DNA of 64,000 bases, taken from the IMG/VR virus record IMGVR_UViG_3300016476_001378. One strand, written 5' to 3'. The notes under the pieces are model-generated. The model did not search any database. It worked only from the letters and a program-made list of their open reading frames with translations, and had not been told where the DNA came from. Every line of letters starts with the position of its first letter. Within the stretch, counting starts at the first letter, position 1. Both the position numbers and the translations under genes were made by a program. Source of the stretch: a virus (lineage: Duplodnaviria > Caudoviricetes). Of this stretch, positions 179 through 63,023 are shown in pieces.

Positions 179-248
179 AACACACCTCCCCAGGTTTATT
201 TTTGTGATGAGAGCTATTGTTTTATTCTGTATTTATAAGGCTTCCTCT

Positions 249-482
249 TTATTTTTCCAGTGGTTTGACTGTGATTAATTCTGCTTCTTCATGCCTCAAT
301 GCAATGAAGAAACCCCTAATTGAAATTTCTAGGGGCCCCTTATTACAACTATGTCTGACTATTTTTACAATTGTATCTTTTGTAAAACCAAGTTCAGAAA
401 GTCTATTTCTAATTTCTCCAGAAACCTGGACTACAGAATAGTCCAAACCTTCTTTCCCGCAGCATAATTGTGTAGTATTCAT
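249..482 (-). CDS. feoA: FeoA-family (SH3-like) protein
   Basis: RLSELGFTKDTIVKIVR...GPLEISIRGFFIALRHEEAELITV matches the FeoA pattern RL..LG...G..V.V....GP....RG..IALR..EA..I.V. Confidence 0.85.
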   Translation of the reverse strand: MNTTQLCCGKEGLDYSVVQVSGEIRNRLSELGFTKDTIVKIVRHSCNKGPLEISIRGFFIALRHEEAELITVKPLEK

Positions 483-511
483 ATTAATATAATTCTGTTT
501 TTAGGTGTGAT

Positions 512-808
512 TTACCACCATAAATTAAACCAAAGTTCTGAAAGAATTTTGATAGCTTTTTTAGCATTTTCTATTCTTGCTATTTGTTCGACAAGGCTTG
601 TCTGTTTGTCATCTTCTAGGTAATAATCTTTCAAAGACTTTAAAATGAAATTTAACTTTTCATCATAAGATTCTGATGTCTCACCATCTGGGTAACCATT
701 TTTTAATTCTATAAACTTCTCTAGCCTTGGTATTAAAAAGACTGCCAACGTATGGTCTAGATTAGCAGTCTTTTTAATATCAAAATTATAATCTAGTTTA
801 TCATTCAT
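512..808 (-). CDS. Conserved phage hypothetical protein
   Basis: LDHTLA..LIPRL..F.....GYP and a C-terminal LWW recall a widespread phage family. Start trimmed to ATG 808 (ATGA overlap with the upstream stop). Confidence 0.6.
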   Translation of the reverse strand: MNDKLDYNFDIKKTANLDHTLAVFLIPRLEKFIELKNGYPDGETSESYDEKLNFILKSLKDYYLEDDKQTSLVEQIARIENAKKAIKILSELWFNLWW

Positions 809-1002
809 GGTATGTCTTGTATCTTTGTGCATTTCTTATAATCAGATTTTTCTTCGTTAAGAATAATAAATTTTTCAAATCCACTGCCACCGCAGCGACC
901 AGCACCTTTGCCCTTACATTCACAAATGCCAATAGGTTTACCATGGCGAATAATCAATTTGTCGCCGTGTTGCTCTTTAAGTTCTTTAATCTTGTCTTCC
1001 AT
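805..1002 (-). CDS. Small Cys-containing hypothetical protein
   Basis: AGGAG SD; overlaps its neighbours in a tightly packed minus-strand run. Confidence 0.55.
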   Translation of the reverse strand: MEDKIKELKEQHGDKLIIRHGKPIGICECKGKGAGRCGGSGFEKFIILNEEKSDYKKCTKIQDIP

Positions 1003-1264
1003 TTATTTTCTCCTTACATAATTTTATGTCAAAATCAATCTCAACCATAATTAAAATATTAGTACATGGCATGCCATAATGATCTAATGAAACAGGATGG
1101 CAAGCTAGAATTGGCTCTTCTTCATCAAAATAAAAGTGAAAATCATAATCAGAGTTGCCAAAAGACAACTCTTCACATGGCATGCTTCTATAAAAGAAAT
1201 CAGCAAACTCTAAATCAAAAGCTAATTGTGCTTGCTCTTTATCAATGTAATCAAATAACATCAA
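986..1264 (-). CDS. Acidic hypothetical protein
   Basis: ORF coupled to both flanking genes. Confidence 0.55.
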   Translation of the reverse strand: MMLFDYIDKEQAQLAFDLEFADFFYRSMPCEELSFGNSDYDFHFYFDEEEPILACHPVSLDHYGMPCTNILIMVEIDFDIKLCKEKINGRQD

Positions 1265-1850
1265 AAAAGCTTTCTAGGTTCACAAATTTATTATTATAAA
1301 AATGATTCTCTCTAAATTCTTGAATGGATTCATAATATTGGAATCTATCATTAAAAAAGATAATTCTTGGCTTTTCGCCCATTTGGGTTAACACTTTATT
1401 AAAAATTAAGCGGCCTGTTCTGCCATTGCCATCAATGAATGGATGTATAACTTCAAACATATTATGGGAAATTAAAGCTATTTCAAGGGGCGAAAGCTTG
1501 CTTTCATTCATTAACTTCTCTGTGTAATAAAACCAAGAATCAGCCATGAGCTCTGACAACAAATAAGATGCAGGGCATGCTTCACCACCAATGTAGACAT
1601 CACAATTTCTATAGCAACCACTGTTGTGGCCGTTCTCAAAAAATGGTATGCCCCGAGTTAATACTCTGTGTATGTCTAATGCTGTGTAAGGCCCGATGTT
1701 CCAATCTTTAGAAAGAACAAATTCCAAAGCGTCCATTTGATTCTGATACATTAAATCGTTAGGATCTGTGCCATCAAATCCAGGCTGTGGATCAATCTTA
1801 TTAGACTCAACTACAAAAAGATGCTCAAAGGTGTTATTTAAAAAATTCAT
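1251..1850 (-). CDS. Fic/Doc family protein
   Basis: Canonical Fic motif HPFIDGNGRTGR; also IHRVLT and SGCYRNCDVYIG. Confidence 0.92.
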   Translation of the reverse strand: MNFLNNTFEHLFVVESNKIDPQPGFDGTDPNDLMYQNQMDALEFVLSKDWNIGPYTALDIHRVLTRGIPFFENGHNSGCYRNCDVYIGGEACPASYLLSELMADSWFYYTEKLMNESKLSPLEIALISHNMFEVIHPFIDGNGRTGRLIFNKVLTQMGEKPRIIFFNDRFQYYESIQEFRENHFYNNKFVNLESFFDVI

Positions 1851-1867
1851 TATTGTCTCCAGAGCTT

Positions 1868-1891
1868 AAAAAGCCCTCTACTATAGAGGGC
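1868..1891 (-). terminator. Intrinsic terminator
   Basis: GCCCTCTA/TAGAGGGC stem, T-run on the minus strand. Confidence 0.65.
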
Positions 1892-1902
1892 CCTTTTTGT
1901 TT

Positions 1903-2307
1903 TTATGATAGATTATCTTTCGCCCGCTGCATCATTGAACTAATAGATTTTAATCGCTCTTCTTGGCGGGCAGATTTGGGCTCTATAATACTTTCTATAG
2001 AATTCATAGACCTTATAATAGAGTCGCTTGTAGATGAAACTAAATCAGCCTCAAAGCTAAATGAAAGAGAAAAGTCATTATCAGGTTCAATTCTAAAATT
2101 AGCCCTCAAGCAATTATTTGAATAAGAAGTTTGACGAATAGAGGCCATCTTTAAAACAAACTCTGCTGTTTCACAAATTTGTGAAATTGAAGGGGCCGAT
2201 AGATCATTGGCTTCATAAAGCTTTTGTATTTTTACAAAAGTACCATTATCCCAACAATCTCTAATAATCTTTTGAATCGCGTTCTCAATAAGGTTTTTAT
2301 CTATCAT
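1903..2307 (-). CDS. Hypothetical protein
   Basis: 134-aa ORF; GATAAT 6 nt before ATG, no SD. Confidence 0.6.
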   Translation of the reverse strand: MIDKNLIENAIQKIIRDCWDNGTFVKIQKLYEANDLSAPSISQICETAEFVLKMASIRQTSYSNNCLRANFRIEPDNDFSLSFSFEADLVSSTSDSIIRSMNSIESIIEPKSARQEERLKSISSMMQRAKDNLS

Positions 2308-2325
2308 GTAAAGATTATCGGTTAT

Positions 2326-2715
2326 TTAAGCTGGTGGGAACACATCATACCTAACCCAAGGATCATAAAAATGCTTTTTCAATTTACAAAATTCTTCATA
2401 GGTATCTAGGTTTTCTCCAGTATAAATTACACCAAGGTCATGTGCATCAGTAAAAACATTTGTCGAATTAAACTTTGTATGGCTCAATTTCGCTTCAATA
2501 ATAGATTTGCCATAATAATCATTCTCTAATTTAGCTGAAACCTTCAAGGTAGCATTGGTATGTAATGCAGTAATAATAAAGCTGAATGTAAGACCGTAAC
2601 GATTTTGTTTTTCAGAATAATCAAGAAACAGAGTTTTATAAGGGGCTTGTGGTTTAAGCAGAATGTTTTTATCTTGTATGACATCTTGAATCAATTGAAT
2701 TAAGTTAGTTTCCAT
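2326..2715 (-). CDS. Hypothetical protein
   Basis: 129-aa ORF, divergent from the GT cluster. Confidence 0.6.
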   Translation of the reverse strand: METNLIQLIQDVIQDKNILLKPQAPYKTLFLDYSEKQNRYGLTFSFIITALHTNATLKVSAKLENDYYGKSIIEAKLSHTKFNSTNVFTDAHDLGVIYTGENLDTYEEFCKLKKHFYDPWVRYDVFPPA

Positions 2716-2738
2716 AATGATGATATTATAAAATTAAA

Positions 2739-3692
2739 ATGAATGATGTTCAAAAAGTTTATCAATTAAAAGAAAGATTTTCTTCTTTAAACCACGCTCT
2801 TTATGGGCCCCCTTTAAAGATTTTAATAACATTCCGCTACGGGTTTGGATTTTTAAGGAATGGGGCAATGAGATGTATCTATAACATCTTTGAAGTCCTT
2901 AAAAGTAGAGGGCATAAAATCACATTAATCTTTGATAATCAATTCAAACATTTTAATGAAGACCCAAGCTCAAATCAAGATTATGATTTGTTTATTGTCA
3001 ATCACGCAGATCATTTTAAATCATTAAATTTAGATACCAAAGGCAAGCCAATTATTCACCTTGTACATTCAGAATTCTTTGAAATAGACAAACCCTTAGT
3101 TGGTTATGAAAACATAAAGTATGTTGCTGTACGCACTGAAATTAAAGATTATTTAATCAATCATTATTCCATAGATGAAAGTTCAATTAGTATTATTCTA
3201 AACCCCATTGATGTAACTAAATTTAACCCACTGATAACAGAAGAAGATAAAGAAATAGTAAAACAAATGGGCCTCAATAATTTTGGTTTATTTGCTGGCA
3301 CATTTATGTATCTAAGAGAAAAACCATCTATTAACTTCGCAATGCTGTGTAAAGCTAAAGGTATAAAATCGGTTTATGTGGGTGAACTTGTCAATGATAA
3401 AAATCGCCAGCTTTTAGAACAACATTTTGATTTAGTTTTGCCATTTAATGATAAAGTTGATTCATTATTCAAAATGGCCCAAATCACAGGCGGGATTCAA
3501 AAAGGCAGAACTTACTGGGAAGGCAAGTTGTGCAAAAAGACAGTTTTTGAATTCATGGTTGATTCAGATGGAGAAATCTATGATCTATTAATTGAAACAG
3601 GTTCAGATGAAGATGCTGAAATAGTAAAAAAGATTGTAGAGCCTACTTTTGTTACAGAATTGATACTTGATTTAGCATTGAACTCTTTATAA
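2739..3692 (+). CDS. Glycosyltransferase-like protein (GT-B/GT4-like)
   Basis: G-A-x(4)-N...LKSRGHKITL, IIHLVHS, YVAV...IK.YL...Y.I...I.IILNPIDVTKF are typical of GT4 N-terminal domains. Confidence 0.6.
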   Translation: MNDVQKVYQLKERFSSLNHALYGPPLKILITFRYGFGFLRNGAMRCIYNIFEVLKSRGHKITLIFDNQFKHFNEDPSSNQDYDLFIVNHADHFKSLNLDTKGKPIIHLVHSEFFEIDKPLVGYENIKYVAVRTEIKDYLINHYSIDESSISIILNPIDVTKFNPLITEEDKEIVKQMGLNNFGLFAGTFMYLREKPSINFAMLCKAKGIKSVYVGELVNDKNRQLLEQHFDLVLPFNDKVDSLFKMAQITGGIQKGRTYWEGKLCKKTVFEFMVDSDGEIYDLLIETGSDEDAEIVKKIVEPTFVTELILDLALNSL

Positions 3693-3718
3693 TTTTAATT
3701 GTTTTGTAGAGGTTACAA

Positions 3719-5566
3719 ATGTACAAAGAACATCAGATTGTAAGCGTGACTCCTGCCGGGAGAAAATATTGCTTAGAGATACTTGCTAATCATCTCTTAA
3801 ATTTGCAAGATATTATAGACGAACATCATTTTTGGGTTAATACAAAATCTGATTCTGACATTCAATACATGAAATCACTTAGTGAATCTTATCCTAATTT
3901 CTTTAAATTAATTTACCATGAAACAGATGATTCTTCTGCTTATAACAACTTAGACATTTATAAATTCTTTAAAAACTATACCGATGAAAACACTGTCTAC
4001 ATAAGATTTGATGATGATATTGTATGGGTTGACAACGAAGATAAATTAAAAGATTTTATTCAATTTAGAATAGATAATCCACAATATTTTTTAATCTTTG
4101 CAAACATCATCAACAATGGCATTTGTAATTACATCCATCAAAGAACAGGGGCCCTAAAAAGATTTAATGAATGCTTTAACCCAAATGATTATTTCTTAAA
4201 AGATGTTGCAAGCCAAGGTAATGATTGGTTCCATAATGAAGCGCTTGGAAGATCCGCTTGGAATAAAAATTATTTTGCGCCAGAATCCATAAATGAGAAT
4301 GGTTTATTTGCTTATAACGCATTGAATTATTCATGGTTTGACGCTGAAGTTAGTAAAGAAGTTCATGATAATTTTATCAATAAAGTAAAAAAGAATGATC
4401 TAGATAAATTTAGATTTGGGATTTGGGAATTATCTGATTTTGAAAGAGTTAGCATTAATTGTATTAGTTGGTTAGGAAGTGAATTTAAAAAATTTGATGG
4501 CATTGTAGGAATAGATGAAGAGAAATGGCTCAGCGTCACAAAACCAACGGAAATTAAAAAAATTAATTGTATCTATGGTAATTTTATTGTTTCACATTAT
4601 GGTTTCGGACACCAGCATGAGCCATTAACTAAAGATGGCTACATTAACAAATACAGTAATTTTAAATATCAAACTATAGAAGAAATGCCTGAATTCCCAA
4701 GGTGTAAAATATCTTCACTTGTAGAAATTCAAGCAATTGATCAAAAAGCTTATCACACAACAACTAAAAAAGATTTAAAAGATTTTACATTTGTCATACC
4801 TATACAAATAGATTCAGAAGAGCGTTCAAATAACTTCTATACATGTATAGGGGCCCTTAATAAAATCTGTGATACAAACATTTTAATTGTTGAACATGAT
4901 AAAGAATCAAAGATTAAAAATCTACCAGCAAATTGTAACCACATTTTTGTCAAACAAGAAAATGATTATTTTGCAAGAAATAAAATTTTAAACTTAGGCT
5001 ACAAAAACTGCAAGACCAAATTTGCTGCTAATTTTGAAGCTGATTGCGTACTATCGCCAAATGGATTATTTGAGGCCGTAGAAGCTTTAAGAGCAGGGCA
5101 TAAATTTGCTATTCCCTATGCTTACTTTGCGCTATTTATGAGTCAGAAAGTTAGTGACCATTTTATCTCAACTTTTGAATTGCCTTTATTCTGGAAAGAT
5201 TATTATGGTATAGAATTTTTATCAGAGTATGGAGAAAACACAAAGGCTCATTGGAAAACTTTTACATTTCACAATGGATTATGTTTCTTGTTTGAATTAG
5301 AGGCTTATAAGAAGTGTGGTTATGAAAATGAATTTATGGTTCAGCATGGCTGGGACGACTATGAGCATTACCTAAGAGTTAAAAAGCTAGGTTATGAGAT
5401 TTACAATTCATCAGGGATGTGTTATCATCTATACCACAGTAGGAAAGCAACAACTAATAATTGGTATGGTAAAAACAATTTATCTCGAAAAGAATTTTTT
5501 AGAATAGCCAACTTATCTGATAAGAAGTTAAAAGAAGAAGTTAAATCTTGGGAGTGGATTAACTAA
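3719..5566 (+). CDS. Two-domain glycosyltransferase (GT-A-like N-terminal domain plus GT2/GT7-like C-terminal domain)
   Basis: N-term VTPAGRK...YIRFDDDIV. C-term TFVIPI...R..N...F.RNKILNLG...EADC...GYENEFM..GWDD.E...R...LG...HLYH. Confidence 0.7.
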   Translation: MYKEHQIVSVTPAGRKYCLEILANHLLNLQDIIDEHHFWVNTKSDSDIQYMKSLSESYPNFFKLIYHETDDSSAYNNLDIYKFFKNYTDENTVYIRFDDDIVWVDNEDKLKDFIQFRIDNPQYFLIFANIINNGICNYIHQRTGALKRFNECFNPNDYFLKDVASQGNDWFHNEALGRSAWNKNYFAPESINENGLFAYNALNYSWFDAEVSKEVHDNFINKVKKNDLDKFRFGIWELSDFERVSINCISWLGSEFKKFDGIVGIDEEKWLSVTKPTEIKKINCIYGNFIVSHYGFGHQHEPLTKDGYINKYSNFKYQTIEEMPEFPRCKISSLVEIQAIDQKAYHTTTKKDLKDFTFVIPIQIDSEERSNNFYTCIGALNKICDTNILIVEHDKESKIKNLPANCNHIFVKQENDYFARNKILNLGYKNCKTKFAANFEADCVLSPNGLFEAVEALRAGHKFAIPYAYFALFMSQKVSDHFISTFELPLFWKDYYGIEFLSEYGENTKAHWKTFTFHNGLCFLFELEAYKKCGYENEFMVQHGWDDYEHYLRVKKLGYEIYNSSGMCYHLYHSRKATTNNWYGKNNLSRKEFFRIANLSDKKLKEEVKSWEWIN

Positions 5567-6377
5567 CTCCCAAATAAGATTCTCCATCTGTGCGATCTAA
5601 GTGTATTAAGAGAGCAACATCCTGGCCCCTATAAATATTATGATTCATAGAATAAAGAGCTTTAATGTTTTTGTTTACATCTTCCCAAATTTCTAGGGGG
5701 CAATCTTCTAAACTAAAATTATAATTTATTTCTATAATTTGGTAATCGTGTTCTAATACACAAAAGTAATTATAAGACAATGTATCAAACAAATTATAAT
5801 CATAATAGAAAATTATTTCTAAAATCCTTTGATTAAAATTGGTAAAATTAAAAAAATCAATAGTGGTTTTCTTCTCATAGATTGGAATTTCGCTCAGCCA
5901 AAAATAAACATTCTTGTAGCGATTTAACTTATAAAAAGACCCATGTTGATTCACAAGCTTCATTGATGCCTCTATAATGTTATGAGAAATTTGCAATGAA
6001 GATCTCCCACCTACAAAAGTCTTTTGATCACAAAAAGACTTACAAGCTTTATAGAATAAATCAACATTAATTATTTTAAAGTCTGCGTCTAGTGGGATAA
6101 TAAAATCATAATCATTAATAAGTTTAGATACAAAATAAATCTTTTTAATTACTGGCATTAAATTCTTTTTAAGAATCAAATCTATTATTTCAGCTTTGAA
6201 ATAATCAGATAAAACAAAATAATTAAAATCTAAAACATAAGTTTTTTGGTATAGATCTTTTTCATAGTGATTTGTGAAAATCACATAAAAGTCTATTTTA
6301 TCTTTTAAAGAATTAATAACATCCACCGCGTAATTAAACTTTGGTGGATGTATTGGTAATAAAACTGCAATTTTCAT
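5559..6377 (-). CDS. Glycosyltransferase-like protein (GT-A, DxD)
   Basis: MKIAVLLPIH...YDFIIPLDADF. Confidence 0.5.
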   Translation of the reverse strand: MKIAVLLPIHPPKFNYAVDVINSLKDKIDFYVIFTNHYEKDLYQKTYVLDFNYFVLSDYFKAEIIDLILKKNLMPVIKKIYFVSKLINDYDFIIPLDADFKIINVDLFYKACKSFCDQKTFVGGRSSLQISHNIIEASMKLVNQHGSFYKLNRYKNVYFWLSEIPIYEKKTTIDFFNFTNFNQRILEIIFYYDYNLFDTLSYNYFCVLEHDYQIIEINYNFSLEDCPLEIWEDVNKNIKALYSMNHNIYRGQDVALLIHLDRTDGESYLGVS

Positions 6378-6413
6378 AAGAATAAAGCCTCACAATTAGC
6401 GAGACTTATAATT

Positions 6414-6689
6414 TTAAGCGCCCGGTGACATTAACATTTGAAGGACAAGAAAAACAACAGCAATTACTGATAAAATAACACCTGTGTTATTACCCTTTTT
6501 GACAAGCTTTTCTGCATCTTCAGCAGAATACTTCGCATCTTTAGTGTTTGGAAGAAATGCCATCCAAATAAGACCTAAGACAGAAGAAGCAAAGAACCAA
6601 TTCCAGAATGTATAACCCTTGGATTCTGCCCACTTGCCAATCGCAACACCAATACCTACCAAAAAGATAAGAACAATTACTAAATTCAT
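6414..6689 (-). CDS. Small membrane protein
   Basis: Three hydrophobic segments; A.SKGY.FW.WF motif; AGGAG SD. Confidence 0.75.
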   Translation of the reverse strand: MNLVIVLIFLVGIGVAIGKWAESKGYTFWNWFFASSVLGLIWMAFLPNTKDAKYSAEDAEKLVKKGNNTGVILSVIAVVFLVLQMLMSPGA

Positions 6690-6761
6690 TTCATTTTCTC
6701 CTTCGCAGTGTGTAACTGCGTTTATTAATTTATTATCGTATGCTTTAAAATAAATAAAACT

Positions 6762-6784
6762 AAAGGGGGCAATTGCCCCCTTTT
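6762..6784. terminator. Intrinsic terminator after amtB
   Basis: AAAGGGGGC-AATT-GCCCCCTTT. Confidence 0.75.
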
Positions 6785-6785
6785 A

Positions 6786-8379
<1,594 letters not shown>

Positions 8380-8533
8380 CTATAATGAGATAATTCTCAG
8401 TTATTTTATGGCTTCAAATGTTAAGAAAAAGCATGATTTCTTTTAGTGTTTTTGCTGGCTTTATTAAATAAAACTACCAACTCCATAGGAAATTCCCTGC
8501 AATTCCATGTATAATTAAAAAGAGGTACAAATT

Positions 8534-9055
8534 ATGATAGAATTGACGTGTGAAGTTTGTGGTAATGTATTTCAGAGACAAAAGGGAGAATATAACAGAA
8601 GCCTTAAAAAGGGCAGAAAATCATATTGCTCTAGAAAATGTTGCGGCAAGGCAGTAATAAATAATATCGGAGACTTTAAAAGCGATTACGATATTTCCCA
8701 GCATGCCGGAAACCGTAATGATAAATATACTTTCTTAAGAGCTGTTTATAGGACTACGAAAAATAGAACTGACAAAAATTTTGACTTAACGCTAAATGAT
8801 TTGTTGCAAATCTGGGAAAATCAAGAAGGTAAATGTATTTATACTGGATGGGATTTAGAAACTATTTCTTGGAAAAAACGTGTGAGAAACCCAAAGCAAA
8901 TCTCCATTGATAGAATAGACTGCAATTTAGGCTACACTAAAGACAATGTTCAATTGGTTTGCTTAATAGCAAATTTAGCAAAAAATAATTTTACAAATGA
9001 ACAATTATTTGATTTTTGTAAATCAGTAATAGAGAATAAAGCCAGAGAAAGTTAA
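8534..9055 (+). CDS. Free-standing HNH/His-Me endonuclease with N-terminal zinc finger
   Basis: CEVCG...YCSRKC N-terminus; QEGKCIYTG...SIDRID...GYTKDNVQLVC..AN.AK. Confidence 0.8.
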   Translation: MIELTCEVCGNVFQRQKGEYNRSLKKGRKSYCSRKCCGKAVINNIGDFKSDYDISQHAGNRNDKYTFLRAVYRTTKNRTDKNFDLTLNDLLQIWENQEGKCIYTGWDLETISWKKRVRNPKQISIDRIDCNLGYTKDNVQLVCLIANLAKNNFTNEQLFDFCKSVIENKARES

Positions 9056-9068
9056 TTTTCTCTGGCTT
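9039..9068. terminator. Bidirectional terminator between endonuclease and tmRNA
   Basis: AAGCCAGAGAAA-N6-TTTCTCTGGCTT perfect 12-bp stem. Confidence 0.8.
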
Positions 9069-9071
9069 ATA

Positions 9072-9447
9072 CGGACCCGGGCGGACTCGAACCGCCGTCT
9101 TACGTGCATCTTAAAAAAGCATCTACAAGCTTAGTATAAATTTTAATTTAATTAAAGAGGCCCCTTTATACTAGGTTCTCATTAACTAGCCCTGCTATAC
9201 TAATTGTTAATCTTAGAGCAGCAAATTAACAATTGTCAGCTATAAATAACGCAGAATTTCAGTCTAGCTGAAAACTTCATTCCACGGCTGAGTTAAATAC
9301 TCAGGCTGCGATCGCATACGCAGAAGCGTTGCGAGCTGTTGCAAAGTTATTGTTTGCATTTATTGTTTTCTTCGGGTTTAACGAGGCCACCGAACACCTC
9401 GACTTGCAGCTTAATCTCCCTGCCCGCAATCTACTCCAATCGAGCCC
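9072..9447 (-). ncRNA. ssrA: tmRNA (one-piece)
   Basis: 5' GGGCTCG pairs with 3' CGGGTCC, including G3-U70. T-arm GGCGG-TTCGAGT-CCGCC. Tag ORF 9357..9301 after AATAAAT reads ANNNFATARNASAYAIAA*. About 376 nt. Confidence 0.95.
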
Positions 9448-9487
9448 TTATAATTGTTATTTTACAATGTTATCGTATGATTTTCTA

Positions 9488-9751
9488 TCAAACAGAAATT
9501 TTCTTTTTGGTCCATCCCAATGCTTCTTCTTCTGATACTGGTCTGCCATATTCTTTAAATAAAGACTTTAGTTCTTTATTGAGCTTAGAACTCTTGGTGC
9601 GAATTTGTGTCTTGGTTAATTCGCCATCGCAGGTTAAATTTTCAGGAGAAAGTTGTGAATAACATCGGAGAATGTCTTCTCTGATAAAATATTCATTCCT
9701 TTTAGTCATTGCTTCCAAGCGCCTCCATAGCAGATAATTCACAATCTTCAA
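9488..9751 (-). CDS. Hypothetical protein
   Basis: LSPENLTCDGEL motif recalled from phage hypothetical proteins; true start probably MTKRN near 9709. Confidence 0.6.
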   Translation of the reverse strand: MKIVNYLLWRRLEAMTKRNEYFIREDILRCYSQLSPENLTCDGELTKTQIRTKSSKLNKELKSLFKEYGRPVSEEEALGWTKKKISV

Positions 9752-10301: not shown

Positions 10302-10352
10302 TATTGTTTCTCCAGTTATTTTGATACTACTATAGGAGATGGATGTAAATTT

Positions 10353-11288: not shown

Positions 11289-11297
11289 TATTACAGC

Positions 11298-11525: not shown

Positions 11526-11550
11526 AGTTTATTATGTGTTTAAAAATAAC

Positions 11551-11581: not shown

Positions 11582-11595
11582 CTCTTTTTAATTAA

Positions 11596-11896: not shown

Positions 11897-12532
11897 TTAT
11901 TTTCCTTCTTTTGGAGGCCAAGTGGTCGCCTTGCCTTCTGGCGTAACATGATAAGCATTAAAATCTATGTGCGGATATTCTTGCTGTAATTGTAAAAAAT
12001 GTGCAAGATTAGTTTTACTATCATCATAAAAATGAACTCTTCTAAAGTCATTTTCAGGATTATCTAAGTATTGGCGTAAAACTACATTTTTCTTTTGTGC
12101 TGGTAAATCATCGCCTGGAATGTTACCTGCTCTGTGCAAGTGTATTCCTTGGTCCATAGGAATACCCCAATCTTTAAATGTGTCTAAAACTGGGTCTTTG
12201 CTATCAAAGTCAGATCTCGCAGTGTTGATTATAACTTTGCTTCCAGGATACTTGCTAACATTTTGATGAACAGCTCTCATTTTTCTGAGCATGGGTTCTA
12301 TGGGTGTGCTTTCCTGATTGAATTTTTGGCTATCTCTAAATTCAGAGAAATCAAAATATTCATTGGGGCCCAAATTGTAATTATTAAAGTCTTGATTTGA
12401 AAGAGACTTTAATAATTGTCCAGTTGTTTTATCTTTAACTAGAACATTAGCTGTTGTATGAAAGAGAGTATCATCAATGTCAAAAACATGCAATGATTCT
12501 CCCATTCTGTCTTGAGAATATCTGTACCACAT
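11897..12532 (-). CDS. HAD-superfamily hydrolase with N-terminal MWYRYSQ leader
   Basis: Motif I FDIDDTLF, motif II INTARS, motif III K, motif IV FYDDS..NL. Confidence 0.8.
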   Translation of the reverse strand: MWYRYSQDRMGESLHVFDIDDTLFHTTANVLVKDKTTGQLLKSLSNQDFNNYNLGPNEYFDFSEFRDSQKFNQESTPIEPMLRKMRAVHQNVSKYPGSKVIINTARSDFDSKDPVLDTFKDWGIPMDQGIHLHRAGNIPGDDLPAQKKNVVLRQYLDNPENDFRRVHFYDDSKTNLAHFLQLQQEYPHIDFNAYHVTPEGKATTWPPKEGK

Positions 12533-12559
12533 ACACATTCTATTATAACAGCAAACAAT

Positions 12560-13666
12560 CTAAACCTTGAATAATTCTTTTAGATAAGCAAAACTCAACT
12601 TAGGTCTGTATTCTTTGATTTCAGACCAATTTACACCTTTTTGAAGCATCATACTCTCAACGTATCTTCGGGCGCAAGCTGCGTTATACAGGGCCCTATT
12701 TCGGCATCTTTTAACCTTGCTAGGGTTTACACCGTAGGTATAAATCTTTTGTATTCTGCCCTTCCAGAATAAAGGCAAGTCTTCTAGTAAACATTTATAA
12801 TCTACCCCATTTGGATCAACTGCATAATGGTGTTCAATCATTGGATTTATCCACACTCTATTTTCATGCCTTCTGGAAGCGCAATAATCTATTTCTATCT
12901 CATAATCCCAAAAGCCATAAGGAATCATAATAGGTGGAACATCATTTGTGTCATACATAAAGGATACAAATGTGTAGCCGTCAAAATGTGTACACAATTG
13001 TTTTACAGGCAGAAAGATTTTTGCCACAGGTGATTGGCAGCTTACGTCTAACCAGTCTGCTCTAGGAATAAAAGCATCTCCATAAGAGTAATCAAACCAC
13101 CAGCTCCTAAACAGAGCTTTATTAACAATCATTACACCTTCTGCTCTGCTGGTGTAATAACTGCCAACGCCATTGCTGTGATACTGATAATTAAATCCTG
13201 GGAAGTTCATAATCCAAGAGCAATTATCTTGGAAGTGACTATAGACAGCCCCTTTGTACATTTCATCACATTCTTCTAGGGCCGCTATTAATTTATTTAA
13301 TTGATTATGATTTGCAGCCACATAAGGATGGTCATGATTGCCAGCATACCAAATTAAATCATCTTCTATGTTGTCTAATTTGTTTATAGCTTCTTGCCAT
13401 TGGCTTTGAAAGGCATTTCTTGTTTTATAAAGTTCAGCTTCTGGGAAAATAAGAAGTATTTTTTGATAATATTCTTCTTGGTTTTCAATTTCAGGATCTA
13501 ATTCACAATAAATAATTACTTTAGACCACTGTATAGTTTTGTAACTTTCTAAAGTATAAAGGAAAATTTCTTGTTTAGAATAATTTGGTAAATTATATCT
13601 ATAATTTGGCATACCCAAGGGACTTGGTGAGCCTTCTTGTAAATAAACATTGATAAATAATAGCAT
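12560..13666 (-). CDS. Hypothetical protein, possibly glycosyltransferase-like
   Basis: Start trimmed to MLLFINV; Trp/Tyr-rich, NHDH motif; function uncertain. Confidence 0.55.
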   Translation of the reverse strand: MLLFINVYLQEGSPSPLGMPNYRYNLPNYSKQEIFLYTLESYKTIQWSKVIIYCELDPEIENQEEYYQKILLIFPEAELYKTRNAFQSQWQEAINKLDNIEDDLIWYAGNHDHPYVAANHNQLNKLIAALEECDEMYKGAVYSHFQDNCSWIMNFPGFNYQYHSNGVGSYYTSRAEGVMIVNKALFRSWWFDYSYGDAFIPRADWLDVSCQSPVAKIFLPVKQLCTHFDGYTFVSFMYDTNDVPPIMIPYGFWDYEIEIDYCASRRHENRVWINPMIEHHYAVDPNGVDYKCLLEDLPLFWKGRIQKIYTYGVNPSKVKRCRNRALYNAACARRYVESMMLQKGVNWSEIKEYRPKLSFAYLKELFKV

Positions 13667-18468: not shown

Positions 18469-18496
18469 GACAAACCCCCTATTAATATTATAGTAC

Positions 18497-18529
18497 AAAA
18501 AAGAGGGGCCCTGTACTAGAGCCCCTCTT
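18497..18529 (-). terminator. Intrinsic terminator after dnaK
   Basis: AAGAGGGGC/GCCCCTCTT stem plus T-run on the minus strand. Confidence 0.7.
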
Positions 18530-20381: not shown

Positions 20382-20436
20382 TTACATTAAATAATACAAG
20401 AAAGTTCAGAAATTTTCGTAACTTTGAAACAAAAAT

Positions 20437-21390: not shown

Positions 21391-21424
21391 AAAATAACCT
21401 CTCTTCAATTGTACAATTTAGAAT

Positions 21425-23114: not shown

Positions 23115-23204
23115 AATTGTAAATACCTTTTTAAAAGTCGCTATATTTAATATTACAATATGTTTCCACTGGACACCTATTTAAAGAACTGTAAAATAAG
23201 AACT

Positions 23205-25176: not shown

Positions 25177-25716
25177 TTATAAATCTTTAGTTAAATCGTT
25201 TATTAAGTCCTGGGCCTCTAAATTAATTTTATTCCAAAGTTTATCTTTTTCTTCACCCTCTGGAAGTCTTTTTGGATAAACTTTTAAGTCTTGGAGTTTT
25301 TGTTCCCAGACATTAGTTAATGTTTCCACCATAGCCTTTTTAATGCGACCACTAGTCTCTGGGCTTAAATGATTATCTTTTTCACCAATGTGTAAGCTAT
25401 CCAATACATACTGCTTACCAATGTATTCAGGTGAATTATCAATCCAAATGTGAATTTGATAACCAGCATTGACAGCTGCTTCTCTTTTCCACTGACTGCC
25501 CGCAAATACAACTTGTATGTCATTTAAATTGTATTCTTCAGAAAAGGTTTTTAGTGTTTGATAAACTTCTGCTTCCCATTTACCAGTTTTGCTTCTGCCT
25601 GTAACAATTATTACATTGTGGCCAGCTTCTTGAATAGTTTTAAAAATCTTGCCAAAGCAATTAAAATCTGCTGTGATTGTGTCATCGTAATCAACGCCAA
25701 AATTTAAAATAGACAT
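25177..25716 (-). CDS. HAD-superfamily (phage-type) hydrolase
   Basis: GVDYDDTIT, IIVTGRS, K, IWIDNSP. Confidence 0.75.
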   Translation of the reverse strand: MSILNFGVDYDDTITADFNCFGKIFKTIQEAGHNVIIVTGRSKTGKWEAEVYQTLKTFSEEYNLNDIQVVFAGSQWKREAAVNAGYQIHIWIDNSPEYIGKQYVLDSLHIGEKDNHLSPETSGRIKKAMVETLTNVWEQKLQDLKVYPKRLPEGEEKDKLWNKINLEAQDLINDLTKDL

Positions 25717-25771
25717 ACTTACCTCTCTAGATTTTGTACAAATTATTAATAATAAAAGGGGGCTTTAATTT

Positions 25772-28023: not shown

Positions 28024-28058
28024 AGAATCTTTTTTATAACTCTGTGAGGACTTTCCTG

Positions 28059-28601
28059 TTAAATGGTAATGCCTTGCAATTCTATTTTTTGCTTCATAAG
28101 CTTTTCAGCCTTTTTACAAATAGAACTTACATTTTGATGAGAACATCCAAGGATTTGTGAAATCTCTGCTGTTGAATAACCCTCAATGTATTTCATAACA
28201 ATTATTTCTTTTTGTTTATCTGTTAATGTATTAAGCGCAACCGATAAAATCTGTCTTAATTCAATACTAAGATAATCAAAATCTTCAAAAGCACAATTTG
28301 ACAAGTCTTCCAAATCAATTCTTGTATTGTTATAAGTTTTTACGTGAGCAGGATAATAGATAATTCCAGTTTCTTTGGTAGAAAATTTTCTTACATGGGA
28401 AAGAATCATATTAAAAACATGGGTTGATAATTTTGCGCCCCTATTTTTATCATAAGATCTTACAGCATCTATAATGCCTATTTTTGCTACTTGGTATAAA
28501 TCATCAAACTCATTTCTGCCAGAGTATTGACGGGCAATTTTCTTAGCCATGTTATCAAATTGGACAAGTGCTTCTTTTTCAGCTACATTATTCATTTGCA
28601 T
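28059..28601 (-). CDS. Sigma-70 family RNA polymerase sigma factor (regions 2 and 4 only)
   Basis: DDLYQVAKIGIIDAVRSYD..RGAKLSTH (region 2); LT.KQKEII.MKY.EGYS..EISQILGCS.QNVS (region 4). Confidence 0.9.
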   Translation of the reverse strand: MQMNNVAEKEALVQFDNMAKKIARQYSGRNEFDDLYQVAKIGIIDAVRSYDKNRGAKLSTHVFNMILSHVRKFSTKETGIIYYPAHVKTYNNTRIDLEDLSNCAFEDFDYLSIELRQILSVALNTLTDKQKEIIVMKYIEGYSTAEISQILGCSHQNVSSICKKAEKLMKQKIELQGITI

Positions 28602-29175: not shown

Positions 29176-29247
29176 GTTATTATTATGGTGCATCGACAGG
29201 TTTATAAGATTATTTTTTATAATGACTCTTATAGGAGGGTGATTCAA

Positions 29248-31029: not shown

Positions 31030-31069
31030 TTTTATTCTCCTATTGTTTCTTTTCAAATTATAAAAGAAA

Positions 31070-31091
31070 ATAACCTCCCGAAGGAGGTTAT
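31070..31091 (-). terminator. Intrinsic terminator after ruvB
   Basis: ATAACCTCC-TTCG-GGAGGTTAT plus TTT; overlaps a promoter-like AGG element. Confidence 0.7.
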
Positions 31092-32528: not shown

Positions 32529-32613
32529 CCGGACCAGTTCTGTTAAGTTTATAATAACTATAACAGTATGGTTAGTTTCGAACCTTAACTAAATTTTTCC
32601 TGTATTATTCTTA

Positions 32614-34844: not shown

Positions 34845-35003
34845 CTTATCTTTCCCTATTGATGGTTATAAAAAATAAAAATCTGAGTTTTCTTGGACAG
34901 GGCCCCTTATACCTTTAATAGAGGATGTAATCCCAATACTAACTCAGACCACCTTATTATTGTTTGTTTTGGCATAAAACAGCCCTCTGTTTTTTATACA
35001 AGT

Positions 35004-35029
35004 AGGAGGCCCCCAATTTTTTTATGAAT
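35004..35029 (+). promoter_or_regulatory. Sigma-H-like promoter AGGA-N18-GAAT (best example of the recurrent motif)
   Basis: AGGA at 35004, GAAT at 35026; same spacing at about 11 other upstream sites. Confidence 0.65.
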
Positions 35030-35078
35030 AGATATAATAATTTGGGTAAAGAAATTTATCACTTTGGAGCGTGTTTAA

Positions 35079-39607: not shown

Positions 39608-39686
39608 TATAAAATCTCACTTTGATTTATTTATAATTAAACATTTCAATTTTTGGGCCAAACTAACCTTTGGCATGAAAATTGCA

Positions 39687-51867: not shown

Positions 51868-51869
51868 TC

Positions 51870-57307: not shown

Positions 57308-57333
57308 ATTAAAACAGACTCCTAGGAAAATTT

Positions 57334-58293
57334 TTAAGAGCTTTTATACTCTGTTTGTAGTGGAGCATCTCGTCTGCTTCCAAAGACTTCAAAGCTGAAT
57401 TCTATGAATTTTCTTCTTGAGAAAATTCCTCCACACCTTCTGACTACAAATCCTTTTTGTGACTGCGAGTGAACAAAAATAGGATAGTTGCCATACGATG
57501 TTAGGGAAATAGTATACTCTGCAACTAATTCGTCCCAGTACTCTGGTAGTTCGACAAAAACATCGCCATGACCAGAAATTTTACCCCTATGATAAACACC
57601 ATTTTCGGGGCCCTCAAGACAACCATAGACTAATCTATAACCTTCTTTTGTAGGGTGAGGGATATCGAAACTTTTAGAAGTTGCGCGTAAAACACCATTT
57701 ATAAAAATTGTATTGCTATCTGGCTGCGAGATGATAGAATCTGCTAAAGTATTACTATCAGACCAAATTGGAATGTAATCAGTTGTTCCTGATCCATCGA
57801 CTACACCTGAGGCTCCAGCAACACCCTTGGAGCCTACATATCTATAACCACTAATTTTAAACCCAGTGGCAGTTGAGTGGGTATTTTGAAAATTTAAAAT
57901 ACCTGTTTGATAATCAAAAATCCATCCTGAAGAATCTGTTAACGGAATTAAATTATCATCTTGATCATAAAGATTGATTGCATAAGTGGATGTTGGGTCC
58001 CCATCAAATTTATCAGAAATCCAATCTTTTAATCTATTACCAAGTCCATCGGTTGCATACCAAGATTGCGATCCTGCCACAGTTGTATCAGGAGTCAAAT
58101 CTAATAAAGTATGAACTTCTACGATAGAAGTTGTTGATACTGGGGGCGTTCCTGGTATGTTTTGTGCCCAAATTTCTGAGGCGTGGACATTGATGGTATA
58201 ATCACCAATCTCTTCATACGCTCTCTTTGTCGAGGACGTTACTCTTTTATTAAATAATTTTTTAAAGGTAAAATCAGTTTGCGTCCAAGACAT
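57334..58293 (-). CDS. Virion structural protein with the same C-terminal KSFDI.HP domain
   Basis: W.FDY..GIL.F...I.GYRYVG.KG; ATSKSFDIPHPTK...CLEGPENGVYHRG; start trimmed to MSWTQ. Confidence 0.75.
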   Translation of the reverse strand: MSWTQTDFTFKKLFNKRVTSSTKRAYEEIGDYTINVHASEIWAQNIPGTPPVSTTSIVEVHTLLDLTPDTTVAGSQSWYATDGLGNRLKDWISDKFDGDPTSTYAINLYDQDDNLIPLTDSSGWIFDYQTGILNFQNTHSTATGFKISGYRYVGSKGVAGASGVVDGSGTTDYIPIWSDSNTLADSIISQPDSNTIFINGVLRATSKSFDIPHPTKEGYRLVYGCLEGPENGVYHRGKISGHGDVFVELPEYWDELVAEYTISLTSYGNYPIFVHSQSQKGFVVRRCGGIFSRRKFIEFSFEVFGSRRDAPLQTEYKSS

Positions 58294-58294
58294 T

Positions 58295-60880
58295 TTAAGC
58301 CCCCACCGCACTCGTTATTTGAGTTATTGTTTTGGTGTTATCTCTAAAAATTATAATAATTCTATACTTACCATAATTTGGGCTTACTCCGCTACTTTGA
58401 GTATTCTGGACTCCAAACGAGAAAGTCAAACTACTACCAGATGCTGATACTCTTGCCCCATAAAGATTATTAGTTCCGCCCCTAAATGAACCAATAGGCA
58501 CTGTTGCAAAATTGGCCCCTAAATCATAATAAAGTTCTGTTGTAGGATTATTTAAATCATAAATTTGGGCCAATATATTTACTGAACCAGTTCCAACAGC
58601 AGAAATATCACTCGCAACATTTGATAGTCCAGAAATGGTTAAAAGAATGCTACTTGCAAAAGAATTAAAGAAGAATCGTTGATATTCCTGATCGCCTGTG
58701 AAAGTTAATCTTGGAGAAGTATTATAAGGCAGGGTTGAAGGGGAATCATAATCTGCAGCAATGGGGTATGTCAAAGTTCCGTTTCTGACTTGCAGATAGC
58801 CATTTGCCATGCCTGTTTGTGAATTAAAGGAGCTACTTGTGTCTGTCTGCAATCTGTAGCTCTCATCTCTAAAATATTCAACTGTGTTAGTTGCTGGCGC
58901 TGAGGTATACGTGTTGATACTCCTTATAATAGATGCTGAACTTGATGCAGTTCCAGCAGAGCCTATGTATTCACCATGTGCTTTAAATAAGGCTACAGAT
59001 AAACTTCTTGTGTTTGTATATTGGCTTGGATTATCCAATGTAATTGTTACAGCATTTGCCCCTGTTTTATCAAATTCTGCATTATAAGCTGGAACTGTGC
59101 CTGGATTCAAAACTAAATTATTCATTCCAGTGCCATAAGCTATTGCTACAGATGTTGCATGATAACATCTATCAAAAATTCCAGATGCCGCTTTAAAAGA
59201 CAACGTGAATGTAGAATCTTTGCCATAGTACTTGATGCCTGATAACCAAACATCTACAGGCGACAACTCTGTTATTGTTGGAGAAACGCTAAAAGATGGA
59301 GTTGGCGAGGAATTTGAAGCTGTGTCTCTCCAAAAGCCTGCGACATTTGTTTCACCAGAAAGTGTATGGTCAAAAGAATGACCTTCCCAGCCCTCATTTG
59401 CTTGGGTGTAGCTAATGTGTCCGTATGCTTTTTCCCAAAGTGTATTATAAACATCAATAGAATCTATGGTGAGAGTGCCAGAGGTTCCTGGAAGACCTGT
59501 GGCAGTCAAGTCATAAGTGGCGTTTGTGGTAGATGTTACGGAAGATGATATATGGTTGTATTTGTAAACTTTATGTGTAGCCACACCATAAGTAGCTTGC
59601 GTGTTGGCTTTCCCAGCATAGAATGTTGAAGAATTATTGGCTGTATCTAATCTAAGGGCCCCTGTTAAAAAATATCTGTTTGATATGGTGTCACCAGCAT
59701 TGTATGTACCTGATGAAGTTTGATACCATGAATTTGTTAAACCAGAAGAAAGTTTAACAGTATAGAAATTTGGTGAAGAGGTTAAAACAAGAGCTGTTCC
59801 TGTTAATAAGTTTGGCTTTTGCGGAGCGATTAATTTTAATAATTCATTAATATCATCCATCGCATCTGCAACGGCTGTGGATGAAGTCCATGTATCAAAG
59901 TAACCATCGGTGTATGTTGTGTCTGTTGGGCTGCCAATTGAGCCACCTAAATTTTCGCCCCAAGTTGGTTGATTTGTAGTTGGATCAACTTTTAAAATTT
60001 GTTCAGGAGAACCAACGGGCAAAACGCTCCAAGTAGAAGTAGAACCATTGTAATAAATAATAGAACCATCTGCTTGGGATGAATCTGTTAATTTGGAAAC
60101 ATCAAATGTTTGTGAGCTTGCAAAAGTAACAGCTTGACCAAATCCAGTGGTTCCATTAAATGTATGGTTGCCAGACCAAGTATAATTAGCAGCTAAATCA
60201 ACGGTTAAAGTTAATTGACCTGTAGAAACAAAAGAGCCGCCTGTTACACCATTGACCTTGATGCCACCGCCACCCTTAACACCTAGGTTGCCTAAGCTTA
60301 ATTCGGTCCAACCAGAAGATGTGTAAAGCTTCATTACATTTAGATCATCTCTAAATATAATGTCACCAGTTTGTCCTACAGGGTCAGCTCCTGTGAAGCG
60401 GCCCAATCTTAAACTAGCATTATTTAATGCAAGATTGCCTGTAAGAGTGCCACCCGCGAGCTTTAAATAAAGGCTATTTGCCTCTGTGAGTGTGAGTGCC
60501 CCTACTTGCGCTACATCAACCCATGCAGCGCCATTAAAAATCTTTAATGTAGAAGAAACAGTATTAAAATAGAGGCCACCAGTAGCAGTAGAAGCTGGGT
60601 CTGCAGAAGCAGCATTAAGAACTAAACCAACATTTCCAGAAGTGGGAAGAAACTTAATGTCGCCAGTAACCACACCACCTGTTTTTAGTAAATATAAACT
60701 GGTATTTACACTAAAGTCAATAGTGCTTGGGCCAGGCGTGATAGTAATAGTGCCATTAGCAGAGCTGAATGTAATGTCGTTGATTAAAACATCACTTCCA
60801 ACTCTTAAGGAAGTGACGAGATTTTGTCCAACTGCACCAGCAGCTACTTTTCTAGGGGATACTATGTAAAAAGACGACAT
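58295..60880 (-). CDS. Virion structural/fibre protein (861 aa)
   Basis: YLLKTGG..TG and YLKLAGGTLTG fibre motifs; IGSPTDTTYTDG.F...ADA.D.INE.L; E.F.DE.YRL. Confidence 0.75.
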   Translation of the reverse strand: MSSFYIVSPRKVAAGAVGQNLVTSLRVGSDVLINDITFSSANGTITITPGPSTIDFSVNTSLYLLKTGGVVTGDIKFLPTSGNVGLVLNAASADPASTATGGLYFNTVSSTLKIFNGAAWVDVAQVGALTLTEANSLYLKLAGGTLTGNLALNNASLRLGRFTGADPVGQTGDIIFRDDLNVMKLYTSSGWTELSLGNLGVKGGGGIKVNGVTGGSFVSTGQLTLTVDLAANYTWSGNHTFNGTTGFGQAVTFASSQTFDVSKLTDSSQADGSIIYYNGSTSTWSVLPVGSPEQILKVDPTTNQPTWGENLGGSIGSPTDTTYTDGYFDTWTSSTAVADAMDDINELLKLIAPQKPNLLTGTALVLTSSPNFYTVKLSSGLTNSWYQTSSGTYNAGDTISNRYFLTGALRLDTANNSSTFYAGKANTQATYGVATHKVYKYNHISSSVTSTTNATYDLTATGLPGTSGTLTIDSIDVYNTLWEKAYGHISYTQANEGWEGHSFDHTLSGETNVAGFWRDTASNSSPTPSFSVSPTITELSPVDVWLSGIKYYGKDSTFTLSFKAASGIFDRCYHATSVAIAYGTGMNNLVLNPGTVPAYNAEFDKTGANAVTITLDNPSQYTNTRSLSVALFKAHGEYIGSAGTASSSASIIRSINTYTSAPATNTVEYFRDESYRLQTDTSSSFNSQTGMANGYLQVRNGTLTYPIAADYDSPSTLPYNTSPRLTFTGDQEYQRFFFNSFASSILLTISGLSNVASDISAVGTGSVNILAQIYDLNNPTTELYYDLGANFATVPIGSFRGGTNNLYGARVSASGSSLTFSFGVQNTQSSGVSPNYGKYRIIIIFRDNTKTITQITSAVGA

Positions 60881-60902
60881 CTATTTTAATCCATTTTATT
60901 TT

Positions 60903-62927
60903 TTACAATAAGTCAATAAGCAAGAAGGCAGACCAATAATTACTACCACCCGTTCTCACACATTCCAATTGTAACATTTCACCTGTGGTAACAACAACTT
61001 CGTTAAAATTCTCAAATGATTCGGATTCTTTGTTAATGTTTACTAAACCTTGATCAATTAAAACTTTGTTTCCACAATAAAGTTTGAATACCGCGTTTTG
61101 CTCTGTTGGCGCTTCATCAAACAATATCTCTAATCTTCTAATCTTCCAATTCACTTGAGCCAACGCACCTTGGGTTGTTAAATGTGGCACAGGAACTTTC
61201 ATTCTTATTTTTCTGTTATCAACTACCTCAGAGCCTGCAGCTAATGTCAAATAATGTGAAGGAATGTACTCTGATTTTGACTCTTTTTCAGTAAGAATAA
61301 TTCTTTTCTGCCCAGAGTTGAAAATTAGATGGTTTCCGTCAAACCAAATTTCACCACCTGTGAGTTCTGAAACAGATGGTGTGGGTTGAAATTTAATAGG
61401 GGCCTTTTTAGTTTCTGATAAAATTAATTGTGCTTTGTTTGCCAAAGTAACATCAGATACAAATGTATGATTGCCCTGCCAGAATGGATTAAAGTTAATG
61501 CTCTGGTCAAGATTGATAGATGTAATGCCTTCATTCTGCTGAATAACAACACCAGAGTTTTCATTGGTTTCTAAGTCTACAAGGATGTTTTTCCAAGTTG
61601 GGTTACTTCCTGGCCCCTGCGACATTAAGACTTGGCCAGACATGCCTTGCTCAAACGAAGCGAGTGATTGGTCATGCCCCTTTATAATGATCTGTCCAGG
61701 CGCAAAATCAATCAAATTAGCCCCTGTGCCACCATTTTCAATACCAACTACACCTCGGACATTCTGAGCGGTTCCAGTGATGTCTGAGGTAAGAAACGCT
61801 AAAGCTTTGCGCTGCCTTGATGTAGTTACAAATAAATAATTGCCATCAAACTCTACACCACCCTCAATTGCCTTTTCAATAAGGGGTAATCTTTGGAATC
61901 TAAGAGGGGGAAGAACAGGGCTCTTGCCAAGAGTAATAGGAAAATCAAAATGACCATCAAAACCAGATCTGTCAATTGGAGAATAAACAGGGACACCATT
62001 TTTAACCTGGAGATAGAATCCTTCGCAATTTTGTGTCGAAAGGGTCACTAAATTGTTATCAGAATCGGCATAAAGAATATCGCCCTTGTCATAAGCAGCA
62101 ATTCCAGTACCGCCCTGCGAAAGTGGCATTACACCCTTCAAACTATCTACAGAAAGCTGGCCATTAATTAAGCCAGATTCATTAACTGAGAAAACAGTTT
62201 TACCCGCTAATTCTACACTAAAATTAGGCTGCTTAACATTTAAGATAATTGCAGCAGAACTAGAAGACAAATCATTCTCTTTAAGCTTGGCATGATTTAA
62301 ACCAATTATTAATTGCTTCTCTCTGCTCTCAAAGCTCAAACCAGCTGCAAGGTTATTATCTCTTAGTTTGAAAACAGGATTGAATTCCTCAAATGTAGCT
62401 TGATTCCCATTGACATAAATGGTCTTAATACCTTGCATAAATTCTTTAGAAAATGATGCAAAATCTACCCAAGTCAAAGTTTTATTTTCAGCTAGTAAAA
62501 CTTTTCTTTCTTTAGGTATTGGCAAGAGATCTAATACTTCTTTGCCTGTGTTGATAAGGATGCCTTCTGTTGGGAATAAAGACCAGCCTGTACCACCTTT
62601 ACTAACAGGTAAAACACCCTCGGCTTGGTTCAAACTAACAGGGGCCCAATTTACTCCTCTGGAGGTAAATGTTAAAACGTAGTTATTTTTAGTGGGCTTT
62701 AAAACTTGCCAAGAAACACCATTGGAAACAATTAAAGAGCCTAAAGTGAAATTTTCATGACCTAAATTATTGATTGGAAAAGTTTGGTTTGCTGCGAAAG
62801 TTACAGCCTTTGCAAAGTTGTTTGTGCCTGTCCAAATGTTGTCGCCAGAGAAGTCTAAGCACAACTTGTTGTTATGTAAAATAATTCCATTACCCAGATT
62901 TTCTTCTTGCATTGGTAAATCAGCCAT
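60903..62927 (-). CDS. Fibre-like structural protein (674 aa)
   Basis: GVLPVSKGGTG, GVMPLSQGGTG, GVVGIENGGTG repeats; W.G.(H/N).F...VTFA..QTF shared with the 861-aa protein. Confidence 0.7.
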   Translation of the reverse strand: MADLPMQEENLGNGIILHNNKLCLDFSGDNIWTGTNNFAKAVTFAANQTFPINNLGHENFTLGSLIVSNGVSWQVLKPTKNNYVLTFTSRGVNWAPVSLNQAEGVLPVSKGGTGWSLFPTEGILINTGKEVLDLLPIPKERKVLLAENKTLTWVDFASFSKEFMQGIKTIYVNGNQATFEEFNPVFKLRDNNLAAGLSFESREKQLIIGLNHAKLKENDLSSSSAAIILNVKQPNFSVELAGKTVFSVNESGLINGQLSVDSLKGVMPLSQGGTGIAAYDKGDILYADSDNNLVTLSTQNCEGFYLQVKNGVPVYSPIDRSGFDGHFDFPITLGKSPVLPPLRFQRLPLIEKAIEGGVEFDGNYLFVTTSRQRKALAFLTSDITGTAQNVRGVVGIENGGTGANLIDFAPGQIIIKGHDQSLASFEQGMSGQVLMSQGPGSNPTWKNILVDLETNENSGVVIQQNEGITSINLDQSINFNPFWQGNHTFVSDVTLANKAQLILSETKKAPIKFQPTPSVSELTGGEIWFDGNHLIFNSGQKRIILTEKESKSEYIPSHYLTLAAGSEVVDNRKIRMKVPVPHLTTQGALAQVNWKIRRLEILFDEAPTEQNAVFKLYCGNKVLIDQGLVNINKESESFENFNEVVVTTGEMLQLECVRTGGSNYWSAFLLIDLL

Positions 62928-62964
62928 TCTAAGTTCCCGAGGCCCCTTTTATTTAAATACAATT

Positions 62965-63023
62965 TTACAGTTTTTCATAGCGCAACCCTGCCGCATAAAG
63001 GAATAACTGATAAGAATCTATAA
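62965..63023. promoter_or_regulatory. Back-to-back AGG-N19-TAA promoter-like motifs
   Basis: Minus 62989..62965 and plus 62999..63023, both with exact spacing, facing divergent structural operons. Confidence 0.6.

Follow-up and report, generated by a model that had tools for sequence, protein, structure and literature searches.

A conserved AGG-N18/19-(T/G)AA motif as a probable phage-specific promoter class in an uncultured phage and its relatives

Upstream of many genes in IMG/VR record IMGVR_UViG_3300016476_001378, an uncultured phage (Duplodnaviria; Caudoviricetes), lies a short bipartite motif in which AGG is followed at a near-constant distance by (T/G)AA. The stretch analysed, hereafter the window, is 64,000 nucleotides (nt) long with ~37 % G+C, and its products include a transfer-messenger RNA (tmRNA), a peptide deformylase, ThyX, DnaK, very large fibre-type proteins and a 180-amino-acid (aa) sigma-70-family protein. 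An original prediction held that the motif marks a late regulon that includes the structural units and is read by this sigma factor; the sequences it described are present at all 12 of the positions it listed. No nucleotide match to the window was found in the phage collection by megablast, a single-protein search of IMG/VR gave no match, and an IMG/VR search with the sigma alignment recovered distant sigmas only. Relatives were gathered via homologues of the sigma, a 336-aa protein, a 674-aa protein and DnaK. They represent ~7 lineages with conserved synteny and 38-97 % protein identity to the window. The loci named below are W (the window) and its relatives L001, L006, L008, L010, L012, L018, L020, L021 and L023. 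The moraphage paper (PMC12619734), considered as a possible account of the clade, yielded no link to the phage.

Across 12 orthologue groups the motif is held at fixed spacing while the spacers themselves have diverged (53 sites, 36 non-redundant), and every conserved site faces a gene. The spacing is kept, and the spacer scrambled, even in relatives with 38-70 % protein identity. The consensus of the 36 non-redundant sites is R-n-AGG-W-W-t, then K-A-A-W (R, purine; W, A or T; K, T or G), with 19 nt between AGG and KAA at 27 sites, 18 nt at seven and 20 nt at two. A purine stands two bases before AGG at 33 of these sites and A or T follows it directly at 32; K is T at 27 (75 %) and G at nine. 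Read as hexamers, nnnAGG and nnKAAw are separated by 17 bp, which is canonical sigma-70-family geometry. Both the spacer, which varies little (17 +/- 1 bp from one hexamer to the other), and the orientation upstream of unit starts are those of a bipartite sigma-70-family promoter.

Whether the motif exceeds chance depends on where it is counted. The window as a whole holds 53 matches to AGG-N19-KAA against 70.9 +/- 8.4 in shuffles, so this counting test is insensitive and shows no enrichment. An excess is seen when only the 100 nt ahead of gene starts are read in the sense direction: 9 of 65 genes have the motif there, compared with 3.1 for shuffled sequence and 2 for the antisense strand. It is also seen in the gap profile. 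When the upstream regions of four lineages (the window plus three diverged relatives) are pooled, 18 regions match at N=19, whereas every other gap between 8 and 31 has ~7. Unsupervised dyad ranking placed AGG-N19-TAA and AGG-N20-AAA just below dyads related to terminators and ribosome-binding sites; terminators and ribosome-binding sites dominated the output when the window was used alone. When AGG-Ng-KAA is required in every lineage of an orthologue group, three groups qualify at g=19, and the remaining values of g between 8 and 27 yield no group. Composition-matched scrambles (AGG, GAG or GGA combined with KAA, AKA or AAK, gaps 12-26) gave 0-1 conserved groups in all 134 other cells, versus three; most of the cells scoring 1 are one or two registers off the motif and were taken as shifts of it. 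As a discriminating core, ACAGG was tried and discarded: it is common in coding sequence as Thr-Gly codons.

Conservation supports 10 of the 12 scattered sites originally listed. The promoter assigned to the gene of the 336-aa beta-sandwich protein (35079) lies at 35004-35028 (+), where AGG-N19-(G/T)AAT is kept in 14/14 loci over a scrambled spacer, its KAA 45-57 nt before the ATG. In the leader of this gene (35029-35078 (+)) and of its orthologues, a conserved AATTAATTT box stands 8-9 nt after GAAT, and a small hairpin lies between it and the ribosome-binding site; most loci retain the box and the hairpin. The 336-aa protein has no PHROG or Pfam match, and its candidacy as major capsid protein was rejected, as the AlphaFold model is poor (predicted local distance difference test, pLDDT, 62) and all-beta and Foldseek returned generic beta-sandwich matches. 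On the opposite strand, ATACAGG-N19-KAA at 32577-32601 (-) precedes a 76-aa gene (ATG 32516) in 8/8 loci. A site absent from the original list, 28034-28057 (-), has the best position weight matrix score in the window and heads the peptide deformylase-HD genes with an 18-nt spacer in 6/7 loci, KAA always lying 9-10 nt before the ATG in the six.

AGG-N19-TAA at 62965-62989 (-) heads the giant structural operon, which runs from 62927 to 39687, and lies 36-37 nt before the ATG in the window, L020 and L021, whose proteins are 38-45 % identical. Facing the other way, the same three loci keep an N19 site at 62999-63023 (+), 270-291 nt before the ATG of a virion gene (63298), as the putative promoter P1 of that gene, immediately upstream of its long leader. 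Within that leader a second conserved AGG-N19-KAA, missing from the original list, occupies 63064-63088 (+), 202-225 nt before the ATG in all three, and could be a P2. Beyond these, the site at 39645-39669 (-), ahead of a Big_9/cadherin-like 285-aa gene (39607), is kept in one close relative (L010) with a different spacer; it is also the top match in held-out flanks for a matrix trained elsewhere.

Several smaller groups have the same arrangement. Before a 244-aa gene (25149), N19 is found at 25187-25211 (-) in W, L006 and L008 (3/3), 37-42 nt before the ATG. The site at 29198-29222 (+), before a 127-aa gene (ATG 29248) and a 125-aa gene, is kept in three loci, with N19 in W and L010 and N18 in L006. 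The longer-spacer variant that the original prediction had placed at 23153-23178 (-), before DUF5856-methyltransferase genes, was borne out: AGG-N20-TAATATTA is present in W, L001 and L006 and absent from L008 (2/3). The HAD-family gene has its site at 12543-12567 (-), and its one orthologue (L023) has AGG-N18-TAA 10 nt before the ATG. A candidate promoter of the 131-aa/PLD-like operon at 31052-31076 (-) shows KAA at N18-19 in 7/8 loci, 20-36 nt before the ATG, its AGG being the 3' arm of a terminator stem CCTCC..GGAGG. Two matches stay as unverified candidates. One, at 222-246 (-), before a small gene running off the window, shows the pattern only. The other, at 18488-18512 (-), before a 945-aa gene, has AGG in a terminator stem and KAA inside TATAAT; the L023 orthologue of this gene has AGG-N18-TAA at another position, 10 nt before its ATG. 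The proposed CGG variant at 32530-32554 (+) was rejected, since it is not kept in L006, L012, L008 or L018; the nearby 274-aa gene has a conserved CCTGTAWWAT box instead.

These positions bear on where transcription begins. At three genes, the deformylase, the HAD orthologue and a 937-aa gene of L023, only 9-10 nt separate KAA from the ATG, which suggests that transcription starts ~10 nt past KAA and that these genes have leaderless mRNAs. In the window it is the second ATG of the HAD gene (M-W-Y, 12530-12538 (-)) that KAA precedes by 10 nt, and promoter geometry suggests that the gene starts there and not at its first ATG.

Other genes, including the sigma operon, carry a second kind of signal, a -10-only box (TATAAT or TGTACAAT). 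The boxes are conserved 6-8 nt before the ATG as (A)CTATAAT, ACSATAAT or a palindromic TTGTACAA. The original prediction had noticed starts with no AGG motif before them, and this was upheld at 2739, 21408/21425 and 25772, where -10-only boxes are found instead. The Ogg-sigma operon likewise has a -10-only box without the AGG motif. The palindrome is conserved between two divergent gene pairs (21409-21424 and 25717-25771), 6-8 nt from both start codons, and looks like a bidirectional -10-only promoter yielding leaderless mRNAs. TGTACA is ~7-fold and TTGTACA ~12-fold enriched in intergenic DNA. The two classes together suggest a cascade in which host-type promoters express the sigma and the sigma then activates the AGG class.

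The candidate reader, encoded at 28059-28601 (-), is a true sigma-70-family protein, as originally proposed, and consists of regions 2 and 4 only. Pfam scores are above their cut-offs for region 2 (PF04542, Sigma70_r2, 34.9 bits vs 24) and region 4 (PF04545, r4, 41.2 vs 24.1; PF08281, r4_2, 46.1 vs 25.7), and NCBIfam TIGR02937 (sigma70-ECF superfamily) scores 76.7 bits vs 42.9. In NCBIfam, region 2 is matched best by SigB/F/G models and region 4 by FliA/WhiG models, sigma70-ECF and SigK also being among the top models; the SigH model is outside the best 25. Two stretches are invariant among 15 orthologues at ~50 % identity: C-S-H-Q-N-x-S, the helix of region 4.2, and L-S-T-H in region 2. An invariant recognition helix at this level of divergence is expected if the target is conserved, which fits a conserved phage-specific target. 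The lineage is phage-specific: it was found in no cellular genome among 185,579 species, where matches reach region 2 only and are mostly in Bacillota. The sigma gene is syntenic in all loci gathered through it and in the 336-aa-protein loci that reach its position; the L020 and L021 stretches do not extend that far.

We conclude that AGG-N18/19-(T/G)AA is very probably a phage-specific promoter class, a conclusion drawn from sequence comparison. Orientation towards genes, fixed geometry and phylogenetic footprinting favour the promoter interpretation made originally, but the term 'structural regulon' is too narrow, because the motif also lies 5' of non-structural genes. The downstream genes are mixed: the fibre-type giant operon and virion-type genes (with PHROG tail-fibre and virion matches) stand beside deformylase, HAD and DUF5856 genes. 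We infer further, and less firmly, that the 180-aa sigma may be the reader and the class late. The HAD, DUF5856 and PLD-operon products, which the original prediction saw as late or virion cargo, would at most be candidates for such a role. The joint reading, a phage-specific promoter class covering several gene sets whose best-candidate reader is a 180-aa sigma made first, is the account we favour, and we hold it to be somewhat better than an even proposition. Its promoters would comprise a -35 box R-n-AGG, a spacer of 17 bp (sometimes 16) and a -10 hexamer nnKAAw, and the class would be conserved over a clade of uncultured freshwater jumbo phages. The sigma gene, behind a -10-only host-type promoter, would be expressed first. 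Host core RNA polymerase with a non-housekeeping sigma, for which the phage's own 180-aa protein is the best candidate, would then most likely read the AGG class. Transcripts would start ~10 nt past KAA, giving leaderless mRNAs at some genes (deformylase and HAD) and leaders of 20-290 nt elsewhere. Besides the giant structural operon, the class would take in two further virion-type genes and a number of accessory genes.

Several results weigh against this account. The non-structural genes behind the motif (deformylase-HD, HAD and DUF5856-methyltransferase) widen the class beyond virion functions. The motif carries ~14 bits of information and predicts weakly genome-wide; in held-out flanks only 2 of 8 best matrix matches were upstream of genes, and other promoter determinants must therefore exist. 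All relatives gathered via the sigma gene or the 336-aa protein carry the motif, and because motif and sigma gene are seen together wherever this can be checked, their co-occurrence cannot discriminate. At two sites (31052 and 18488), finally, the AGG lies inside a terminator stem.

The likeness to Bacillus subtilis sigma-H that the original prediction emphasized holds for sequence and geometry. The two boxes of sigma-H promoters are 11-12 nt apart. Given the consensus -35 RNAGGAWWW and -10 RNNGAATWW (PMC8510167), RNAGGAWWW-N11/12-RNNGAATWW is equivalent in geometry to AGG-N18/19-GAAT. Bacillus sigma-H (Spo0H) promoters thus share with the phage sites the purine two bases before an invariant AGG, the A/T after it and the separation of AGG and -10 core, and some sites, 35004 among them, have GAAT exactly. 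The -35 box agrees with RNAGGAWWW, whereas the GAAT core does not hold across the class: the phage -10 core is TAA in three quarters of sites. The candidate sigma is, moreover, not a SigH orthologue, and the setting is a phage. The resemblance is one of how the promoter works, not of family membership.

This comparison frames the first alternative, that the promoter class is real and has another reader, either a second phage sigma encoded elsewhere in the genome or a host sigma-H-like alternative sigma. The fit of the consensus to the sigma-H-type boxes would be expected, and the best-scoring models for the 180-aa protein are SigB/F/G and FliA rather than SigH. Yet K is T at most sites, where sigma-H -10 boxes have G, and the synteny of the 180-aa sigma gene holds across the loci gathered through it and the 336-aa-protein loci that extend to it, with its recognition helix unchanged. 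We regard a different reader as possible but unlikely.

In logic, the system nearest to a class read by the 180-aa sigma would be the sigma cascade of SPO1. SPO1 middle and late promoters, with the consensus AGGAGA-N17/18-TTTNTTT, are read by gp28 and gp34 on the host core polymerase. In this Bacillus phage, phage sigmas act as a cascade (PMC13401047). As proposed here, a small phage sigma would similarly redirect host polymerase to a non-host, AGG-bearing -35 element in a temporal cascade. The -10 box differs and homology is at the level of the sigma family only; tblastn matches of the 180-aa sigma to SPO1-like phages are weak (~24 % identity). T4 late promoters, TATAAATA, lack a -35 element and are recognized by gp55 together with gp33 and the sliding clamp. 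They too are phage-specific signals before structural genes, and some KAA boxes here lie in TATAAATA-like strings (222-246 and the 39645 region). However, the conserved feature here is a -35-like AGG at a fixed distance, and gp55 is unrelated in architecture to the 180-aa sigma.

T4 also provides a model for the second alternative. In sigma appropriation by MotA/AsiA, phage factors work through the host sigma, and the AGG box might similarly bind a phage factor while host housekeeping sigma reads a weak nnKAAw. Low information content in the -10 element and the placement of several KAA boxes inside TATAA(T)-like hexamers (12543, 29198, 18488) agree with this. The fixed 17-bp inter-hexamer spacing, though, is typical of direct contact by sigma region 4, G-bearing boxes (nnGAAT) lack the TA of host-type boxes, and a non-exhaustive search of the window revealed no gene resembling MotA or AsiA. 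An activator-dependent promoter appears improbable. Least credible by far is a compositional artefact, with AGG supplied by terminator stems (as at 31052 and 18488) and ribosome-binding sites and TAA by AT-rich intergenic DNA: the flat window-wide count and a raw match inside structured RNA (34890-34914) speak for it, but it is already contradicted by the peak solely at N=19, by cross-lineage conservation confined to the AGG/KAA pattern at gap 19, and by motifs kept in 14/14 and 8/8 loci over scrambled spacers.

Most genes of this uncultured clade are without known function, and the two promoter classes would allow them to be sorted by expression class from sequence alone. The AGG class may also fix several true start codons, such as M-W-Y in the HAD gene, and mark the beginning of the virion gene's long leader RNA. 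If the 180-aa sigma does read the motif, the pair would form a compact, orthogonal sigma/promoter system in which a sigma-H-like specificity has arisen in an unrelated sigma. More tentatively, and with confidence short of even, we suggest that a lineage of phage-only minimal sigmas, made up of regions 2 and 4 and with a C-S-H-Q-N recognition helix that has no precedent, converged on sigma-H-like specificity and drives a late programme shared by a whole clade of widespread freshwater jumbo phages, including leaderless mRNAs and terminator-stem promoters.

Other conserved features accompany these genes. The match at 34890-34914 beside thyX was rejected as a promoter, as it sits within a conserved structured RNA at 34865-34960 (-), between the 336-aa gene and thyX and on the thyX strand. 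This RNA forms a multi-stem hairpin (21 predicted pairs, 11 with compensatory changes) followed by a T-run, 20-40 nt before the thyX start. It matches no Rfam family; it may serve as a leader of the attenuator or riboswitch-like type, or else act as a small RNA. A one-piece tmRNA lies at 9072-9447 (-) (Rfam RF00023, 123 bits; tag ANNNFATARNASAYAIAA). The syntenic relative L023 has annotated P-II and ammonium-transporter homologues that correspond to the 112-aa and 425-aa open reading frames of the window (6786-8355 (-)), which suggests that the phage carries auxiliary nitrogen-metabolism genes. Finally, an inverted repeat, AAAGTTACGAAAATTTCGCAACTTT, at ~20390-20420 (-), 5' of the phage dnaK (20336), is kept in three lineages; it is unlike CIRCE (controlling inverted repeat of chaperone expression) and may be an operator.

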